A DNA stretch of 64,000 nt, taken from positions 44,651-108,650 of the forward strand of contig DATJVM010000034.1 of the NCBI GenBank assembly GCA_035501775.1. Reading direction: 5' to 3'. This DNA comes from Gemmatimonadales bacterium (GTDB lineage Bacteria > Gemmatimonadota > Gemmatimonadetes > Gemmatimonadales > GWC2-71-9). The notes beneath the pieces were generated by a model. The model had not been told where the DNA came from, searched no databases, and was given only the letters and a program-made list of their open reading frames with translations. Both the position numbers and the translations under genes were made by a program. Shown piece by piece: positions 4,376-63,009 of the stretch (the first letter of the stretch is position 1; each line of letters starts with the position of its first letter).

Positions 4376-4408
4376 CCCTCTCACCTCTCACCTCTCACCT
4401 CTCACCGC
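4376..4408. repeat. heptamer array, H1 module (TCACCTC x3 + TCACCGC)
   Basis: Read directly from the sequence. It lies between convergent genes, and the coxE stop codon (4402-4404) is inside the last unit. Confidence 0.9.
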
Positions 4409-26199: not shown

Positions 26200-26272
26200 T
26201 GGGGTGTAGCTCAACTGGCAGAGCGCCCGGCTGTTAACCGGGAGGTTGCAGGTTCGACCCCTGCCGCCCCAG
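26200..26272 (+). tRNA. tRNA-Asn (anticodon GTT)
   Basis: Hand-folded cloverleaf: acceptor TGGGGTG/CGCCCCA, D arm GCTC-AACTGGCA-GAGC, anticodon arm CCCGG-CTGTTAA-CCGGG, T arm GCAGG-TTCGACC-CCTGC, discriminator G; 73 nt, no encoded CCA. Confidence 0.9.
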
Positions 26273-42870: not shown

Positions 42871-42873
42871 GGA

Positions 42874-42958
42874 GCGTACAGCGTTCAGCGTTCGGCTTTG
42901 CCTTACGGCTAACGGCTGACGGCTGATGGCTGATGGCTGACGGCTGATGGCTCACGGC
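42874..42958. repeat. mosaic heptamer repeat, H2 (GCGTACA/GCGTTCA x3) + H3 (TKAYGGC x8)
   Basis: Read directly from the sequence. It fills most of the intergenic gap between 42870 and 42979. Confidence 0.9.
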
Positions 42959-42978: not shown

Positions 42979-43209
42979 ATGCCAATCTACGAATACACCT
43001 GCCCCGACTGCGGCAAGGAGTTTGAGCTGTTCGTTCGAGGAGAGACCAGGCTGGCGTGCCCCGGCTGCCACTGCCAGAAGATCGAGCGCCGCATGTCAGT
43101 GCCCGCCCGTCCGGCCGGTGGAGCCGGCGCGACCACGGACTATTCGAGCCTCGGTCCGCCGAGCGGAGGAGGCGGTTGCTGCGGCGGTGGAGGCTGCGGC
43201 TGCCACTGA
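42979..43209 (+). CDS. FmdB-family zinc-ribbon protein with a Gly/Cys-rich tail
   Basis: MPIYEYTCPDCGKEFE...CPGCHC; tail GGGGCCGGGGCGCH. Confidence 0.8.
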   Translation: MPIYEYTCPDCGKEFELFVRGETRLACPGCHCQKIERRMSVPARPAGGAGATTDYSSLGPPSGGGGCCGGGGCGCH

Positions 43210-46963: not shown

Positions 46964-47800
46964 ATGCTCCACACCGCCATCCTTCTTTCCATCAGCTTTG
47001 CAGTCCCGCAGCAGTCGGGTCCGGCTCCCCGACCCGAGCCGATCGCCATCGAACGGCGGGTGGCGGAGCGGCTGGGGCTCCGGGTGGGCGACACGGTCTC
47101 GGTCGGGCTCGAGGTGAACCGGCTTGAAGCCCGGGCGGTGGTGGCTGCCATCTACGAGCCCACCGCCGACCCCTCCGCCGTGGCGCGACGCGACCTCACG
47201 GCGCGGTTTCACCTGCCTTACCTCGCGCGCCTCCTCGGAGCGCCGGACCGGGTGGACCGCTTCGCCATCGCGGTCGACTCCGGGGTGGAGCCTGCCGTGG
47301 CGGCTGGTGTGCTCAACCGGGCGGCCTTCGGCTTCCGCGCGTTTCCGTCCCGGGAGATTGCCAGCGAGTCGTCCGAGACCTTCCGCGTGGTAGACCGCTT
47401 TCACCGGGCCATCGGCGTGATCTCGGTGGTGGCCAGCGCGATCTTTCTCCTCTGCATCATGCTGCTCAAGGTGGAGGAACGCCGGGTCGACGCGGCCGTC
47501 ATGCGGCTCACCGGAATCAGCCGCCGCACCGTCTTTCTGGCCCTGCTCATCGAGGCGGTCCTGATCGCGACGGTCGGATCGGTAATGGGAGTCGCGCTAG
47601 CGGAGGCCGCGAGCGCCACGACCAATGCCTACTACCAGCGCTTCTTCGATACCACACTGGTGTTTTCGATCATCACCTCCGGCATCCTCCGTTTCAGCGT
47701 GGCGCTCTCCATCGGCCTCGGCCTCCTCGCCGGCGCCCTGGCCGCGCGGCGCCTGGTGAAGACCGCGCCGATGGTGCTGTGGGGGAGGGGAGCAGAGTGA
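46964..47800 (+). CDS. short FtsX/MacB-type ABC permease
   Basis: N-terminal anchor MLHTAILLSISFAV, a small ectodomain, and a C-terminal FtsX-like three-helix bundle (VISVVASAIFLLCIMLL...VGSVMGVALA...LGLLAGALAA). Confidence 0.7.
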   Translation: MLHTAILLSISFAVPQQSGPAPRPEPIAIERRVAERLGLRVGDTVSVGLEVNRLEARAVVAAIYEPTADPSAVARRDLTARFHLPYLARLLGAPDRVDRFAIAVDSGVEPAVAAGVLNRAAFGFRAFPSREIASESSETFRVVDRFHRAIGVISVVASAIFLLCIMLLKVEERRVDAAVMRLTGISRRTVFLALLIEAVLIATVGSVMGVALAEAASATTNAYYQRFFDTTLVFSIITSGILRFSVALSIGLGLLAGALAARRLVKTAPMVLWGRGAE

Positions 47801-47929
47801 GAAGTGAGAGGTGAGAAGTGAGAGGTGAGCGGTGAGCGGGAGCAGCGTTAACCGCAGCGTCCAGCGTTCAGCTTTCAGGGCGTGGTCCTGCCCTGTTCTG
47901 CTGATGGCTGACGGCTGATGGCTGACGGC
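47797..47929. repeat. mosaic heptamer repeat: H1 (GTGAGMR x6) - H2 (CAGCGTY x3) - hairpin - H3 (TGAYGGC x4)
   Basis: Read directly from the sequence. The first unit contains the upstream stop codon (47798-47800). The hairpin is CAGGGC/GCCCTG at 47876-47895. The last unit ends 2 nt before GTG 47932. Confidence 0.9.
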
Positions 47930-49128: not shown

Positions 49129-49838
49129 GCGGGCTCCTCACCGCGGTTGGCCTTCGCAAGGACTACCCGATGAACGGGGAGGTGGTGCACGCGCTCCGGG
49201 GCGTCTCTCTCACCATAGAGCGGGGCGAGTACGTGGCCGTGGTGGGGCCCTCGGGCTCCGGCAAATCCACGCTGCTGCAGCTCCTGGGGGGGATCGACTC
49301 TCCGACGGCGGGCAGCGTCCACCTCGACGGGGTGCACCTCGAAGCTCTCTCGGACCGGGAACTCACCCGCATCCGCCTTACCCGGATCGGGTTCGTCTTC
49401 CAGCGGTTTCATCTGCTTCCCGTGCTCACTGCTCTGGAGAACGTCGAGCTTCCCATGGCGGAGGCGGGGCTCGCCAGAGCCGAGCGGCGCGCGCGGGCCC
49501 GGGAGCTGCTCCGCTACGTTGGGCTGGAGAGCCGCGTGAGTCACCGGCCCACGGCGCTCTCCGGCGGCGAGATGCAGCGGGTAGCGATTGCCCGGGCGCT
49601 CGCCAATCGCCCTGCCATGATCCTGGCCGATGAGCCGACCGGCGAGCTCGACGCGGCGACGGGGCACACTATCCTCTCGCTGTTCCGGCGCCTGCACGAC
49701 GATGGTGCCACGCTGGTGGTGGTGACCCATGATGAGCATCTGGCGCGCGAGGCGGGCCGCGTGGTCCAGATGCTGGACGGGAGGATGGTGGCCGACCCCT
49801 CCGGCATCGCGCCCGAGCAGGTGGCAGACGGATGCTGA
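49125..49838 (+). CDS. ABC transporter ATP-binding protein (MacB/LolD-type)
   Basis: Walker A GPSGSGKST, signature LSGGEMQR, Walker B ILADEPTGELD; GTGA overlap with the permease. Confidence 0.9.
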   Translation: MSGLLTAVGLRKDYPMNGEVVHALRGVSLTIERGEYVAVVGPSGSGKSTLLQLLGGIDSPTAGSVHLDGVHLEALSDRELTRIRLTRIGFVFQRFHLLPVLTALENVELPMAEAGLARAERRARARELLRYVGLESRVSHRPTALSGGEMQRVAIARALANRPAMILADEPTGELDAATGHTILSLFRRLHDDGATLVVVTHDEHLAREAGRVVQMLDGRMVADPSGIAPEQVADGC

Positions 49839-51286
49839 TCGTCCTTGCGGTGCGTCATCTCCTGGTCCACAAGGGGCGATCCCTCCTGCTTCTCCTTGGC
49901 TACGGCCTGGGCGTGGCGGTGATGGTGGTACTGCTCTCCGTCGGCGCGGCGATGCTCGAGCAGTCGCGCGACGTCGCCCTGGTGGGCGGTGGCGAGGTGA
50001 CGGTGCTGCCGCTCGGCATCGACGTCGAGGCGATTCGCACCGGCGGAGCGAGCGGCATGTTCTTCGGCATCGACCGGGCACGCTTTCTCACGCGGCAGCT
50101 CCTGGGGGGCCCGCGCCATGCGGGGGTGATGCGGGCGGTGAGCCCGACCATCGAGAACAAGCTGGTCTATCTTGGCGCGCACGGTCGGGTCGTTCCGGTG
50201 CGTGCCGGTGCCGAGCTTCCGAGCCGGGCCCGCGCCGTTGGCGCCGGGCTGCCGGTTCGGGAAGGGACGTGGCAGGACCAGGCCGAAGACTCCGCCTGGT
50301 TCGCGCCGACCCGGCAGGAGCTGTACGACGAGTTGGATCACTTCCACCTGCCGCCGGTCGCGGATTCGACCTGGGCGGAGTGGCACTACTTCAACGTCAC
50401 TGTGGGGCCCAACGAGTGGTGGTACCTGACCTATCTGGTCGCGGGTCAGGTGATGCGAGGCCGCTGGGGCGGCCAGCTGCTCGTGTCGCATCGCAAGCCT
50501 GACGGTGGTTACGACCGGTGGGTCGAGCCCGTCGCGGCGGATGTCATATCTCTGGATACCGCCCGGGCTGACCTGGCCCTGGGCCGGAGCGGAGTGCGGC
50601 AGGAGGATGGAGTCTATCGTCTGCGGGGTCAGGCGACGGGGCCCGCTGGCGCGCTTTCGTTCCAGCTGGCGCTCACCCCCGACGCCAATCGCTACTTCCC
50701 TCCCGCCGATCTCCGGGAGGGAGCCCTGGTCTCGGGGTATGTGGTGCCGGCCCTCAGCGGGCGGGTATCGGGCGAGATCTGCCTGCGGGGGCGGTGCAAG
50801 GCGCTTCACTCCGTACCCGGCTACCACGATCACAACTGGGGCGTCTGGCGTGGCGTCACCTGGGACTGGGGCGCCGCGCGCGGGAAGAGACTGGATCTGC
50901 TCTATGGCGCGGTCTACGCTCCGGACGACACCCTGTTCAGCGGGACCACGGCGCCGCGGATACTGGTGGCAGTCGTCGACTCCCTCGGCGTGCGCCAGAT
51001 CCTCCGGGCCAGAACGATCGCATATCACGGCGGCACGGTTCCGACGGCCTTCTCCTTCGTCGCCTCGCGGGACGACGACACCCTTCGGGTCAGCGCCAAG
51101 GTAGCCGACTATCAGGTCACGCAGCGCGGTTCGGCCGGCCGGGCACAGCACTTTCTGCAGATGCGGGGGACGTTCGAGGTCGAGGGGACGATCGCCGGTG
51201 AGGCGGTGAGAGACGAGGGAGAGGGGTTCTTTGAGACGTATGTGGGGTCAGCCATCAGCCGTCAGCCATTAGCCGTTAGCCGTTAG
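49832..51286 (+). CDS. membrane-anchored protein: FtsX-like N-terminal TM/ectodomain fragment fused to an AttH/CrtC-like lipocalin-type domain
   Basis: The N-terminus VRHLLVHKGRSLLLLLGYGLGVAVMVV resembles FtsX TM1. The middle has AEWHYFNV...NEWWYLTY, reminiscent of AttH/CrtC. The last 12 codons lie in the heptamer array. Confidence 0.55.
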   Translation: MLIVLAVRHLLVHKGRSLLLLLGYGLGVAVMVVLLSVGAAMLEQSRDVALVGGGEVTVLPLGIDVEAIRTGGASGMFFGIDRARFLTRQLLGGPRHAGVMRAVSPTIENKLVYLGAHGRVVPVRAGAELPSRARAVGAGLPVREGTWQDQAEDSAWFAPTRQELYDELDHFHLPPVADSTWAEWHYFNVTVGPNEWWYLTYLVAGQVMRGRWGGQLLVSHRKPDGGYDRWVEPVAADVISLDTARADLALGRSGVRQEDGVYRLRGQATGPAGALSFQLALTPDANRYFPPADLREGALVSGYVVPALSGRVSGEICLRGRCKALHSVPGYHDHNWGVWRGVTWDWGAARGKRLDLLYGAVYAPDDTLFSGTTAPRILVAVVDSLGVRQILRARTIAYHGGTVPTAFSFVASRDDDTLRVSAKVADYQVTQRGSAGRAQHFLQMRGTFEVEGTIAGEAVRDEGEGFFETYVGSAISRQPLAVSR

Positions 51287-51820
51287 CCGTTAGCCATTGG
51301 CCGTTAGCCATTAGCCGTTAGCCATTAGCCGTTAGCCATTAGCCGTTAGCCATTAGCCGTTAGGTGGACCCCGCGCGGATTCACCCTGCACGCTGGACGC
51401 CGTTGTCCTCGCCCGGCCCGCGGCCGAAGCCGCGGCTCGGCCTGCCTGTCGCTTAAGCGACGGGGCAGCCGTTAGGCGTTAGCCGTCAGTCGTCAGCCGT
51501 CAGCCGTCAGTCGTCAGCCGTCAGCCATTAGCCATTAGCCGTTAGGTGGACCCCGCGCGGATTCACCCTGTACGCTGGACGCTGTTGTCCTCGCCCGGCC
51601 CGCGGCTGAAGCCGCGGCTCGGCCTGCCTGTCGCTTAAGCGACGGGGCAGCCGTTAGGCGTTAGCCGTCAGTCGTCAGTCGTCAGCCGTCAGCCGTCAGC
51701 CGGACCTTGCCTCGGCTCACCCTGTACGCTGAACGCTGTACGCTGAACACTGCTGTTCCCGCTCACCGCTCACCGCTCACATCTCACCTCTCACGTCTCA
51801 CTTCTCACTTCTCACTTCAC
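51251..51820. repeat. 570-bp mosaic repeat block: H3' arrays (16, 11 and 7 units) interleaved with two 105-nt structured cores (182-bp period), then H2' (x4) and H1' (x8)
   Basis: Hand-counted. The cores at 51363-51467 and 51545-51649 differ at 3 positions. Each contains the hairpins CCGCGGC-YGAA-GCCGCGG and CTGCCTGTCGC-TTAA-GCGACGGGGCAG. Confidence 0.9.
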
Positions 51821-53286
51821 AACCCCACCCTCACACTGACCGCCCCCGTGTAATAGTGATACGCCCCGGTCGCGCTGCTGATGGCGCTGTTCGAGATGCC
51901 GCCCGAGAGGGCTAGCTCGTTCGCGACCCCCCAGTGGCGGGCGATGCGGAGGTCGCCATGCCATTCCGCCTCGGTGCCGGCGCCGTTTGCGACTTCCTCG
52001 ATCCCAAGGCCGGCGGCGAGCCGCCCTTCCCAGCGTCCCAGGCGGCGGGCGTAGGTGCCGCGCACCTCGCCCAGCAGGAAGCGATCCGGCGAGAAATAGC
52101 CGTTGCCCCTGAAGTCGTACCAGAGCCCGCGACCATAGGCTCCGACCGTGAGCTGACCATTCAGCCGCTCGGTGAGGGCCAGGACCAGCGAGCGGCGGTG
52201 GTTGTTGTCCGAGAGGTAGCCCAGCCCTCCGCCGACTCCCAGGGTGAGCCGCTGGGCCAGAACCGCATCGGCGTCGGCGGTGACCTCGTTGATATCGAGC
52301 CGGTCGGAGAGGAGAAAGGCGGTCTCGTCTATCGTGTAGTGAGCGAACCCGGCATCCACTCCAGCCCACGACGCCAACCGGTAACTCGCGCCGAGGCGAA
52401 TGGTCGCAAGGGCGCGGCTGAATCCCGAGTCAGCGCTGAGCTTCCGCACGCCAACCGCGGCGGTCACGCTTCCATCTCCGCGGTTGAGGGTGGCTCCCGC
52501 CTCCGCCGAAACGCGGGTTCCACTGCGGAGCGGATCTCCGGCCTCGAAGCTCCCCACCGTGGCGAACCCGCGTAGTCCGGGCCCGATGAGAAGCGAGGTG
52601 CCGAGGCTCTGCCACCAGACGGTGTTGTGATCGGAATCGTGGGCGAGTCCGAAGGTGGCCTCGAGGTCCGGCCGCCGGAGGGCGCGGAGCTCGGGCTCCA
52701 GCTTGAGGGCATCCGGGTCCTGGGGGGACGCGAGGAGCGCCATGCCGTTGTACCGATCGGCTTCCTCGGGGCGGCCCTGCCACATGCGGAGCCGGGCCAG
52801 CGCGACCAGCGCTTCCGTGTCCTTCGGGTCCTTCTCCAGGAGCGCCCGCAAGGCGCGGTCCGCCTCGGTGTAGCGTCCCCACCAGGCGAGGGCCTGCGCG
52901 CGCCCGAAGCGCGGGTCGCGCTGATCGGGGTTTTCGGCGATGAGCGAGTCATACCGCGCCACGGCGCCACGGTAGTCCCCGTTCCACGCGAGGATCTTCG
53001 CCTCCCAGAGGCGCACATCCGGATCCTTGGGCTCGACCTCGCGCGCGTCGCGAAGCAGCGCCAGCGCGGAATCGAGGTTCCCGTCCCATCCTTCCAGGAT
53101 CGCCAGGCGGAAGAGAGCCCGCACCGAGCCAGGGTTCTCATGCAGTACCTGGGTGTAGGCGGCGCGCGCTTCCGGGTACTTGCCAGCGGCCCAGAGCGAA
53201 TCCGCCACGTGAGTCTGCGCGGCGAGCGGCAGGGCGCCGAGCCAGAGGCCGATCACCATCACCAAGCGTTGCCCGCGCCGGGTCAC
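51817..53286 (-). CDS. TPR-repeat protein fused to a predicted outer-membrane beta-barrel (YaiO/PgaA-like architecture)
   Basis: Signal-like VIGLWLGALPLAAQ, about 6 TPR-like repeats, and a C-terminal half with alternating-hydrophobic beta-strand pattern. GTG at 53286 overlaps the upstream stop (GTGA). Confidence 0.6.
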   Translation of the reverse strand: MTRRGQRLVMVIGLWLGALPLAAQTHVADSLWAAGKYPEARAAYTQVLHENPGSVRALFRLAILEGWDGNLDSALALLRDAREVEPKDPDVRLWEAKILAWNGDYRGAVARYDSLIAENPDQRDPRFGRAQALAWWGRYTEADRALRALLEKDPKDTEALVALARLRMWQGRPEEADRYNGMALLASPQDPDALKLEPELRALRRPDLEATFGLAHDSDHNTVWWQSLGTSLLIGPGLRGFATVGSFEAGDPLRSGTRVSAEAGATLNRGDGSVTAAVGVRKLSADSGFSRALATIRLGASYRLASWAGVDAGFAHYTIDETAFLLSDRLDINEVTADADAVLAQRLTLGVGGGLGYLSDNNHRRSLVLALTERLNGQLTVGAYGRGLWYDFRGNGYFSPDRFLLGEVRGTYARRLGRWEGRLAAGLGIEEVANGAGTEAEWHGDLRIARHWGVANELALSGGISNSAISSATGAYHYYTGAVSVRVGL

Positions 53287-59408: not shown

Positions 59409-59693
59409 GAGCGTACAGCGTTCAGCGTACAGCGTTCAGGGGCGTGAGAGTTGGCCTGGTGCTGAGAGGGAGGGTGGGCGTAGCTTCGCACCGCGCACCG
59501 CTCAGCGTACAGCGTACAGCGCACAGCGTACAGCGTTCAGGGGCGTGAGAGTTGGCCTGGCGCGGAGAGAGAGGGTGGGCGTAGCTTCGCACCGCTCACC
59601 GCTCACCGCTCACCGCTCACCGCTCACCGCTCACCGCTCACTTCTGACCTCTCACCTCTCACTTCTCACCTCTCACCTCTCACTTCTCACTTC
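59409..59693. repeat. mosaic heptamer repeat: two 101-bp tandem units (H2 array + GGGGCGTGAGAGTTGGCCTGG... core), then 15 H1' units ending flush with ATG 59694
   Basis: Hand-counted. H2 arrays lie at 59411-59438 and 59505-59539. The H1' array at 59589-59693 keeps unbroken 7-nt phase. Confidence 0.9.
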
Positions 59694-62336: not shown

Positions 62337-63009
62337 GGAGCGGAGTCAGGCCCCTCCGGCCGGTCCTGCACCCGGCCCGCACCGGACAGTCGCCGCAGCG
62401 GGCGACCCGGGCCGTGCAGATGAGCGCCCCGAGCTCCATCACTGCCTGATTGAAGGTCCACGCCGCCTTCCCGGCCCGAGGTTGGAGGGCGCGCGCCGTC
62501 TCCCACACCCGCCGCTCCCCTGCCGCTCCGCGGGAGCGAGGATGGAACACCCGCCGGATCACCCGAGCCACGTTGGTGTCTACCGCCGGGTGCGCCTGCT
62601 CGAAGGCGAAGGTCGCCACCGCGCCCGCGGTATAGGGCCCCACGCCCGGGAGCCGCGCCAGGGCGGCGGGATCGTCGGGCACTCGGCCGCCGTGCTCGGC
62701 CACGACGGTTCGGGCCAGGCGATGCAGGTTGGCCGCGCGGCGATAGTAGCCCAGCCCTTCCCAGGCCTCGCGCACCTCCGTGGCGGCCGCAGCCGCGAGA
62801 ACGTCAATCGTCGGGTAGCGCGCGAGGAAGCGGGCGTAGTACTCGGTCACCCGTTGGACCTGCGTCTGCTGCAGCATGAACTCCGAGACCAGAATGGCGT
62901 ACGGATCACGGGTGCGCCGCCACGGCAGGTCGCGGCCCTGACGCCGGAACCAGGCCGTGAGGCGGCGACGGAAGGTGCTGAGCTCCGAGCTGGCGCGGGC
63001 GCGCGTCAT
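62326..63009 (-). CDS. mutY: HhH-GPD A/G-specific adenine glycosylase-like protein (MutY catalytic domain only)
   Basis: LPWRRTRDPYAILVSEFMLQQTQV, HhH LPGVGPYTAGAV, Asp context VDTNVARV, and the Fe-S loop CTARVARCGDCPVRAGC. At 227 aa it lacks the NUDIX-like C-terminal domain. Confidence 0.75.
   Translation of the reverse strand: MTRARASSELSTFRRRLTAWFRRQGRDLPWRRTRDPYAILVSEFMLQQTQVQRVTEYYARFLARYPTIDVLAAAAATEVREAWEGLGYYRRAANLHRLARTVVAEHGGRVPDDPAALARLPGVGPYTAGAVATFAFEQAHPAVDTNVARVIRRVFHPRSRGAAGERRVWETARALQPRAGKAAWTFNQAVMELGALICTARVARCGDCPVRAGCRTGRRGLTPLLSI

Follow-up and report, generated by a model that had tools for sequence, protein, structure and literature searches.

Ordered heptanucleotide arrays and double hairpins form a mosaic repeat in intergenic DNA of an uncultured Gemmatimonadales bacterium

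The stretch of DNA analysed here comprises 64,000 nucleotides of a Gemmatimonadales bacterium (assembly GCA_035501775.1, contig DATJVM010000034.1, positions 44,651 to 108,650; in the following, the window), with a G+C content of 68%, in which a block of repeats at 51251-51820 lies between two convergent genes. One of these encodes a 484-aa protein without a Pfam family (49832-51286, plus strand), the other a TPR protein (51817-53286, minus strand) that is 100% identical to a protein on the ENA metagenome contig ERZ27256514:k141_3889782 (115.7 kb; L121 in the following), its other homologues being at most 64% identical and, where named, labelled Gemmatimonadales. The block fills the gap between the two genes entirely, from stop codon to stop codon, as had been stated in a preliminary description of the sequence. 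The phylum Gemmatimonadota is abundant in soil, but nearly all that is known of it comes from metagenome-assembled genomes (MAGs).

The block is built from heptamer arrays of three kinds, named here in the sense of the whole family: H1, with the forms H1a (GTGAGAR)n and H1b (GTGAGCG)n, H2 (CAGCGTW)n and H3 (TRAYGGC)n. On the minus strand it reads H1a(5)-H1b(3)-GGAACAG-H2(4)-CAGGGTG-spacer-H3(7), then a unit of hairpin B, hairpin A, H2(2), CAGGGTG, spacer and H3(11), and then a repeat of this unit that ends in H3(16) (Table 1). Direct reading of 51000-52100 and tokenising reproduced the unit counts of the preliminary description (16, 11 and 7 for H3, 4 for H2 and 8 for H1) as well as its two 105-nt cores with 3 substitutions between them (97.2% identity over 107 nt), and the 182-bp period was found by Tandem Repeats Finder, too (51285-51702, 2.3 copies, 91% matches). 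Core copy 1 contains, on the minus strand, hairpins B and A, GGGCGAGGACAA, the relic of an H2 pair, the junction CAGGGTG and a spacer of 19 nt that holds a small hairpin; in copy 2 the H2 pair is intact (CAGCGTC CAGCGTA) and followed by CAGGGTG. Each core holds the two hairpins that had been noticed, and one of the three substitutions lies in the loop of hairpin A (CGAA vs TGAA). In most of H3 array 1 the units TAACGGC and TAATGGC alternate, and a period of 14 fits this array better than a period of 7 (94% vs 85% matches in Tandem Repeats Finder), which supports the suggestion that 14-nt dimers were duplicated.

Table 1. Features of the block at 51251-51820 and of the related loci in the window (unit sequences in the family sense unless a strand is given)
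Feature	Position	Strand	Composition and remarks	Basis
H3 array 1	51251..51362	-	16 units TRAYGGC (plus strand GCCRTYA), one variant GCCATTG	reading, tokenising
Core copy 1	51363..51467	-	105 nt	reading, tokenising
Hairpin A, copy 1	51418..51435		CCGCGGC-CGAA-GCCGCGG, 7-bp stem and tetraloop	
Hairpin B, copy 1	51442..51468		CTGCCTGTCGC-TTAA-GCGACGGGGCAG with bulge (CTGCC-T-GTCGC-TTAA-GCGAC-GG-GGCAG)	
H3 array 2	51468..51544	-	11 units; variants TAACGGC, TAATGGC, TGACGGC, TGACGAC, TAACGCC	
Core copy 2	51545..51649	-	105 nt, 3 substitutions relative to copy 1	
Hairpin A, copy 2	51600..51617		CCGCGGC-YGAA-GCCGCGG type	
Hairpin B, copy 2	51624..51650			
H3 array 3	51650..51698	-	7 units	
Spacer and junction	51699..51724	-	contains GGTCC and the CAGGGTG junction (plus strand CACCCTG, 51718-51724)	
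H2 array	51725..51752	-	4 units CAGCGTW (plus strand TACGCTG/AACGCTG), the last degenerate (CAGTGTT)	
Linker	51753..51759	-	GGAACAG, conserved, joins H1b and H2	
H1 array	51760..51815	-	5 GTGAGAN (H1a), then 3 GTGAGCG (H1b); plus strand 8 NNCTCAC	
H1a array between convergent genes	4378..4405	-	GTGAGAG x4	
Partial composite	42873..42958	+	H2 x3, 11-nt spacer, H3 x7-8; between hydrolase stop codon and small Zn-ribbon gene	
Second full composite	47797..47929	+	H1a x4, H1b x2, linker, H2 x3, CAGGGCG, spacer, H3 x4; between FtsX and MacB-type permease genes	
Block in the nadE / 4HBT thioesterase gap	59410..59690	+	(H2 array-CAGGGGCG-~60-nt unit) x2, then inverted H1b x7, H1a x6	

Runs of period 7 occur at only five places in the 64 kb (~4.38, 42.9, 47.8, 51.25-51.82 and 59.4-59.7 kb), in agreement with the recurrence described earlier near 4.4, 42.9, 47.8 and 59.5 kb, and no other sites in the window carry the three heptamers; the period-7 arrays recognised by Tandem Repeats Finder comprise 4-16 copies. 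There are 87 strict heptamer units in runs of at least two, whereas 100 simulations with a first-order Markov model gave 0.5 on average, and the earlier estimate of roughly 100 units is reached when units with one mismatch are included. Similarly, the composite pattern CAGCKTNCAGGG-N(12-32)-GGCTRAYGGCTRAYGGC (H2-CAGGG-spacer-H3) has four sites in the window vs none in 100 dinucleotide shuffles. All five loci are situated between called genes, and codons take in the edges of the arrays only. The loci at 47.8 and 51.7 kb share the order of the modules, the gradient from H1a to H1b and the linkers (GGAGCAG at 47.8 kb), and those at 4.4, 42.9 and 59.5 kb are partial or rearranged versions of the composite. 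The last of these ends 3-22 nt upstream of a start codon; at 59410-59605 it shows a second higher-order tandem repeat (101-bp period, 1.9 copies, 93% matches), analogous to the 182-bp duplication.

The contig L121 allowed a comparison of the arrays between two nearly identical assemblies. Over 21.4 kb, L121 and the window differ by 53 substitutions (99.75% identity) and 11 insertions or deletions (indels), of which 10 are located in heptamer arrays and are multiples of 7 (35, 7, 14, 42 (39+3), 7, 14, 21, 21 and 7 nt), one of them being exactly the dimer GCCGTTAGCCATTA. The only indel outside the arrays is a single C at 62351, close to the 3' end of the gene for a HhH-GPD glycosylase, which may be a frameshift or an assembly error. 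In L121, H3 array 1 is three units shorter (-7, -14), H3 array 3 is reduced from 7 units to about 1 (-42 nt), the H1 array of the block differs by +7 and +14 nt, the H3 array at 42.9 kb has five more units (+35 nt) and the 59.5-kb block differs by +21, +21 and +7 nt. The two assemblies agree in both cores, in the three differences between these and in every junction. When L131 was compared with L133, as a second lineage, the part that aligns colinearly up to the arrays includes array indels of +14 and +7, and in two pairs of contigs from different samples (L122/L126 and L125/L130, 99.8-99.9% identical) the arrays are identical with no gaps. The arrays are simple-sequence repeats; that they gain and lose entire units of 7 nt, and dimers of 14 nt, is a signature left by slipped-strand mispairing, and the slippage including 14-nt dimers that had been proposed from the block alone is thus borne out by these indels.

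Both assemblies appear to be based on short reads (the contig name indicates k = 141), and no array is longer than 114 nt; because the arrays are shorter than k, absolute copy numbers are lower bounds. The metagenomic source, the relation of array length to k, and the related contigs that break inside arrays (L122 ends and L128 starts there) could be taken to mean that the block is an artefact, i.e., a collapsed or chimeric short-read assembly of low-complexity sequence. We regard this as extremely improbable: an independent assembly that is 53 substitutions apart has the same architecture, cores and junctions, so that a simple artefact is ruled out, the modules were also found in contigs of three other metagenomes (see below), and contigs from different samples share identical arrays. 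Several metagenome contigs end within heptamer arrays (L122 at its 3' end, L128 at its 5' end, and L129), and the point at which L131 and L133 part lies immediately behind an array; it appears that short-read assemblies are broken or wrongly joined at the repeats.

The composite pattern matched nine JGI (Joint Genome Institute) metagenome contigs from three samples, in which the modules and their order are those of the window, both orientations are represented and the density is very high (L124 has ~11 blocks, with small genes between them, within 6.2 kb, and L128 higher-order units of ~210 bp), so that the family extends beyond the loci of the window. The order of the modules is (GTGAGAR)n-(GTGAGCG)n-linker-(CAGCGTW)n-CAGGG-spacer-(TRAYGGC)n, often with the double hairpin attached; the linker starts with GGAAC in the metagenome copies, and convergent, divergent and same-strand gaps are all occupied. 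The fixed order and conserved linkers in the window and the nine contigs, together with the hairpins in other genomes, fit the earlier comparison with mosaics of the bacterial interspersed mosaic element/repetitive extragenic palindrome (BIME/REP) type and with the short tandemly repeated repetitive (STRR) arrays of cyanobacteria.

At least 10 copies of the double hairpin were found in four sources (the window, L124, L128 and L129), with the consensus CGTCGCTTWAGCGACAG-RNG-GCCGAGCCGCGGCTTYRGCCGCGG (GTCGC-TTWA-GCGAC ... CCGCGGC-TTYR-GCCGCGG) and invariant inner stems. The stem of hairpin A is identical in L124, L128 and L129. In hairpin B the inner 5-bp stem is invariant, and the outer stem varies yet pairs (CTGCC/GGCAG, CATC/GATG, GGCTATC/GATGGCC and GGCGATC/GAT-GCGCC; pairing was judged from folds of each copy, and the placement of gaps in our alignment A1 misregisters the outer stem), which, with four distinct variants only, is modest evidence for constraint on structure. 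The cores are direct and not inverted, both in the block and in L128 (three copies). A blastn search detected no other copy of the core in the window or in 120 genome loci, and the core could have passed for a sequence unique to this locus; the metagenome contigs that carry core modules overturned this. The core is thus a reused module of the family. Its two hairpins are conserved across genomes; as a whole it folds no better than shuffled sequences of the same composition (z = -0.5, -1.3); hairpins with stems of at least 10 bp are common in the window at 68% GC.

The blocks lie close against the coding sequences and in part extend into them. In a 21.5-kb stretch with gene calls (L121), blocks are borne by four intergenic gaps, precisely those that exceed all others in size (354, 488, 167 and 340 nt), the remaining gaps being at most 112 nt long. 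The last 11 codons and the stop codon TAG (51284-51286) of the 484-aa protein are read from the first 36 nt of H3 array 1: whereas its orthologues end in ...GFFETYVK*, the protein of the window ends in ...GFFETYVGSAISRQPLAVSR (tail ...ETYVGSAISRQPLAVSR), an extension encoded by the array, and the tail differs between the two assemblies (GSAISRQ... vs GAAVSRQ...). In FtsX the end WGRG* of the orthologues has become WGRGAE*, i.e., two residues have been gained, and its TGA stop lies inside the first H1 unit. The stop codon was thus overwritten by a block in two cases. The stop of the TPR protein (TGA, 51817-51819) has the same position as in the orthologues, the H1 array beginning at the next base; the stop of the hydrolase is likewise at the orthologous position, with the array beginning a few bases beyond, and at 4402-4404 the TGA stop of a minus-strand gene sits in the first H1a unit. 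In all three forward H1 arrays (47795-47800, 4402-4404 and 51817-51819), the upstream TGA stop is in or abuts the first GTGAGAR unit, and every unit of H1 and H3 carries a TGA or TAA. The repeats thus take up as much room as selection on the coding sequences leaves them. Directly after the H3 array at 42.9 kb, an open reading frame for a 76-aa FmdB-type zinc-ribbon protein (MPIYEYTCPDCG..., 42979-43209) was noticed, which is uncalled on the ENA contig, has an orthologue called in L134 (PF09723) and a TATATT box 7 nt ahead of its ATG.

In L134, a relative with a TPR protein of 58% identity, gene order is conserved over 21 kb. Of its four orthologous gaps, three are short (84, 88 and 57 nt) and without H1-H3, and the blocks are therefore lineage-specific gains, which the flanking genes do not need. 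In the convergent gap L134 has one long hairpin, and its nadE-4HBT gap contains a mosaic made of different components, namely (AGGGAAG)n, then the long palindrome GTCATCCCGAG...GGGATGAC and then (CTCTTCC)n, a second copy of which is found at L134 520-790. A palindrome GTCATCCCGAGCG...CGCTCGGGATGAC flanked by inverted purine- and pyrimidine-rich heptamer arrays, with a geometry resembling that of miniature inverted-repeat transposable elements (MITEs), was observed at L134 520-790 and 3400-3630 and at L088 7100-7210. The relatives at 64% identity (L131-L133) have (GGGAAAG)n from the TPR stop codon onwards and GCGGTGA arrays, L135 has GTGAGCA, TTCAGCG and CTGAACG arrays, and the same style is found in other Gemmatimonadota MAGs (L072, L084, L088). 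With these other heptamers and palindromes, mosaics of heptamers and hairpins look like a habit of the clade, in which the units turn over quickly and blocks are gained and lost lineage-specifically.

A cis-regulatory role of the blocks is possible. In such an explanation the double hairpins would act as two-way terminators independent of a U-tract, or as stabilisers of the 3' ends of the convergent genes; elsewhere, H1 and H3 arrays would supply stop codons in all three frames, G-free (YTCTCAC)n arrays near start codons would be unstructured leaders without need for a Shine-Dalgarno sequence, and GAGGTGA units would serve as Shine-Dalgarno-like ribosome-binding sites. The conservation of the hairpin module across genomes, with its covarying outer stem, and the single long hairpin in the same convergent gap of the syntenic L134 would agree with this. 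So would the same-strand gaps, in which the canonical composite stands about 6-7 times in the sense and once in the antisense direction (suggestive, not significant), the pyrimidine-rich G-free arrays, three independent examples of which (59.69 kb, L084 and L124) stop at a distance of 0-22 nt ahead of a start codon, and the infrequency of Shine-Dalgarno-like motifs upstream of the called genes; a similar role was proposed for TAACTGA arrays by MacGregor 2015 (PMC4679880). Against these observations stand the orthologous gaps of L134, in which the flanking genes do without blocks, the presence of modules in convergent, divergent and same-strand gaps alike, a copy number that is free to vary between strains (from 7 units down to 1), and the folding of the core, which is not above that of shuffled sequence. 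Moreover, scans for a sigma-70 promoter and a U-tract terminator consensus gave no result (0 terminators in 50800-52300, which also disposes of an intrinsic Rho-independent terminator); the hairpins are followed by GCCGTTA units or CTCGG and not by a U-tract. In Rfam scans at the gathering score and at E <= 1 no family matched, the best score of the block being 11.6 bits vs a gathering score of 90. A cis-acting element of RNA or of transcript ends as the main explanation of the blocks therefore seems unlikely, though its probability is not negligible. The forward H1a units (4378-4405, 47797-47838 and 51760-51815) contain GAGGTGA, and the reverse (CACCTCT)n mimics an anti-Shine-Dalgarno sequence; we take GAGGTGA to be a perfect Shine-Dalgarno-like complement of the usual 3' end of 16S rRNA (the 16S sequence is not from this genome). 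The sole match at the gathering score in the window is a tRNA gene at 26200-26272.

Arrays of the H3 type are widespread outside the family. Among GTDB species representatives, (GCCRTYA)x4 was found at 120 or more loci in more than 15 phyla, those of the matches listed including Acidobacteriota, Gemmatimonadota, Actinomycetota, Planctomycetota, Cyanobacteriota, Bacteroidota, Chloroflexota, Nitrospirota and Pseudomonadota, among others. Among the matches listed, A/T-rich unit variants occur in low-GC and G/C-rich ones in high-GC genomes, the flanks of the arrays share no motif, and neither orientation with respect to the genes clearly prevails (35 vs 26; 52 vs 41). Among the same matches, H1 arrays alongside H3 are essentially restricted to Gemmatimonadota (except for one 3-unit GTGAGGN run at a Nitrospira locus), and none of the 120 loci has a genuine H2 array. 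In IMG/VR, H3 forms 44 stretches, compared with 1, 32 and 12 for three permuted control heptamers. TRAYGGC as a special cross-phylum motif is weakened by the lack of common flanks and of a clear orientation bias, and by the permuted controls; since these also form arrays, slippage alone explains the existence of such arrays. The TRAYGGC arrays fit a general heptamer-repeat phenomenon better than a special shared function, and a general excess of heptanucleotide repeats in bacteria is given in the summary of Mrazek et al. 2007 in PMC4679880. Other observations on these arrays concern 44 predicted viral contigs with at least 4 TRAYGGC units (L136-L179, IMG/VR), a long-read Saprospiraceae chromosome (L010) with an array of up to at least 56 units, and some Acidobacteriota loci (L001, L005, L093) in which CAGCTTT-type arrays precede TRAYGGC, recalling the order of H2 and H3.

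The arrays might also be binding sites for a DNA- or RNA-binding protein that contacts every 7 nt, either as a post-transcriptional regulator or, as is the case for BIMEs, in a role of the nucleoid, gyrase or IHF type, with the copy number tuning occupancy in the manner of a contingency locus. This would account for the strict 7-nt period, for the variation within units, which consists mostly of transitions at two positions, for the three arrays just upstream of genes (42.9, 47.9 and 59.6 kb) and for copy numbers that vary from strain to strain. It is improbable, given that related genomes have quite different heptamers at comparable sites, that in public contigs arrays of permuted control heptamers are comparably frequent (1, 32 and 12 vs 44 stretches) and that no candidate protein was found.

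The most probable explanation, in which we have reasonable but not full confidence, is that this uncultured Gemmatimonadales bacterium harbours a lineage-specific mosaic repeat, non-coding and selfish or neutral, which is dispersed in intergenic DNA and of which the block is one large copy. The family is dispersed and modular, its arrays change by whole units, its blocks are gained in single lineages, and they abut and overwrite stop codons. As to its origin, the arrays grow by slipped-strand mispairing, and the 182-bp unit (core and H3 array) may have been duplicated when the H3 arrays that flank the core paired out of register or underwent unequal exchange, after which the copies would have diverged by 3 substitutions and in the composition of their arrays. 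Composite units would then have been copied to new intergenic sites, candidate processes being transposition in trans acting on the hairpin module, similar to the hairpin-forming REP doublets (REPINs), or else exchange among the arrays by recombination and gene conversion. Such an element would for the most part be selfish or neutral, with nothing but selection on adjacent coding sequence to check its spread, and plausible side effects would be stop codons in all three frames and GC-rich hairpins at the 3' ends of both convergent transcripts.

Several points weigh against this explanation. Some of the array differences could be due to assembly collapse, and the true copy numbers may be higher; the genome-wide abundance of the family is an extrapolation from 64 kb and fragmentary contigs. 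The conserved sequence of the hairpins and the compensatory changes in the outer stem suggest constraint beyond neutrality, and the sense bias hints at selection at the RNA level or selection for stop codons. Finally, we identified neither a mechanism of copying nor, among the genes called for 41.8-63.2 kb, a transposase, and the block ends showed no terminal inverted repeats or target-site duplications.

The copying step, which is left open by the selfish or neutral mosaic repeat, is specified by an overlapping explanation, namely that the block is mobile but non-autonomous, in the manner of a REPIN or MITE, with a double hairpin recognised by a transposase acting in trans (like the REP-associated tyrosine transposase, RAYT, or the Y1 enzyme of IS200/IS605) and heptamer arrays as preferred landing sites or by-products of insertion and excision. 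Dispersed composites with conserved order and linkers, a hairpin module conserved in several genomes, the GTCATCCCGAG...GGGATGAC palindrome between inverted heptamer arrays in relatives (a MITE-like geometry) and the lineage-specific gain of blocks speak for such an element. However, the tokenised ends of the window blocks have neither terminal inverted repeats nor target-site duplications and simply abut stop or start codons, the cores are in direct orientation, unlike inverted REPINs, and no block of the window is missing from L121 or vice versa. No transposase is encoded among the genes called for 41.8-63.2 kb (L121), the rest of the window not having been scanned for protein domains. On these grounds a mobile element of this type is a minority option to which we assign a low, but appreciable, probability.

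A more far-reaching proposal is that the ordered arrays and the double hairpin represent intergenic elements of a new class that propagate themselves, or else a code for recognition. A lineage-specific factor would read the hairpin as well as the 7-nt units, and it would either place copies of the composite at gene ends or use it to control where transcripts end and translation begins, with related systems based on other heptamers and palindromes across Gemmatimonadota and possibly in other phyla with TRAYGGC-type arrays. This must be considered quite speculative and is rather improbable; if true, a dedicated copying or binding factor would constitute a new mobile or regulatory system. Irrespective of this, the family fills the largest gaps of the lineage, rewrites C-termini of proteins, breaks short-read assemblies and varies between strains, and gene calling, binning and strain typing are therefore affected. 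Its variable arrays are ready-made strain markers of the variable number of tandem repeats (VNTR) type, and the combination of ordered arrays with a hairpin is a tractable case for asking why 7-nt repeats dominate the simple sequence repeats (SSRs) of bacteria and how REP-like mosaics spread.

Several known classes of elements were rejected for the block. A CRISPR array, for which at least 3 identical repeats of 23-50 nt with unique spacers of similar length between them would be required, does not agree with only two 105-nt cores that are separated by heptamer arrays and lack unique spacers; integron attC sites (GTTAGGC-like cores) were dropped because of the housekeeping neighbours, the two cores only and the lack of unique spacers, and a MITE proper because the tokenised block ends have no terminal inverted repeats or direct duplications. 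The cyanobacterial STRR1-3 proper differ in their unit sequences, and the homologues of the flanking protein are named Gemmatimonadales. There was no homology to plasmids or phages (the plasmid search gave chance-level matches within Tni genes only, the phage search none). A paper on triplex repeats (PMC4666352) proved not to be relevant. In the literature searched, no paper names these heptamers as bacterial repeats or describes repeats of Gemmatimonadota, and with no match in Rfam, plasmids or phages this accords with the earlier statement that the family is not a described one.

The closest known systems are the STRR of heterocystous cyanobacteria, long simple sequence repeats (LSSRs; Mrazek et al. 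2007, as summarised in PMC4679880) in general, and the REP/BIME mosaics. As in STRR and LSSRs, 7-nt tandem arrays of several unit families are located in intergenic DNA at many loci of a genome, the heptamer period is dominant and copy number varies by slippage; the head-to-tail units (of 5-11 nt in LSSRs) beyond chance, the whole-unit copy-number polymorphism and the intergenic location are those of LSSRs. The STRR units of cyanobacteria are CCCCAGT, TTGGTCA and CAACAGT, whereas the family of the window consists of GTGAGAR/GTGAGCG, CAGCGTW and TRAYGGC units in Gemmatimonadota, and what is dispersed is a composite and not independent arrays, since conserved linkers and a hairpin module connect the different arrays in an order that is fixed. 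With the REP/BIME of Enterobacteria and the REPINs of Pseudomonas (PMC3116915), the family shares conserved GC-rich hairpins in intergenic mosaics with short motifs, a frequent position between convergent or operon genes, tandemly amplified clusters, and abundance in one lineage with absence from relatives; a conserved palindrome, which for REP/BIME is imperfect and 20-40 nt long, is repeated in intergenic DNA in a mosaic of regular order with other motifs. It differs from them in that its hairpins are direct and not alternating or inverted, that their partners are long heptamer arrays and not L/S/l/r/s motifs, that there is no sequence similarity and that no RAYT was identified, the genes called for 41.8-63.2 kb including no transposase. 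Intergenic direct repeats of the heptamer TAACTGA are known from marine Beggiatoaceae, cyanobacteria and Bacteroidetes (MacGregor 2015, PMC4679880); they likewise have a stop-carrying heptamer, arrays few nucleotides upstream of start codons without a Shine-Dalgarno sequence and a unit that recurs in distant phyla, but the unit is another one and mostly present in 2-6 copies of a single heptamer, with no multi-array mosaic or hairpin core (PMC4679880). The phase-variable SSRs and VNTRs of contingency loci in pathogens also change by whole units between close strains; however, the arrays of the window lie mostly in 3' or inter-operon gaps, their non-coding 7-nt steps switch no reading frame, and no link to surface or virulence genes was seen, the neighbours being of the housekeeping type. 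The family is set apart from STRR because of its sequence and taxon and from BIME/REPIN because it lacks their alternating orientation, and it seems to be an undescribed sequence family that represents a known kind of element.

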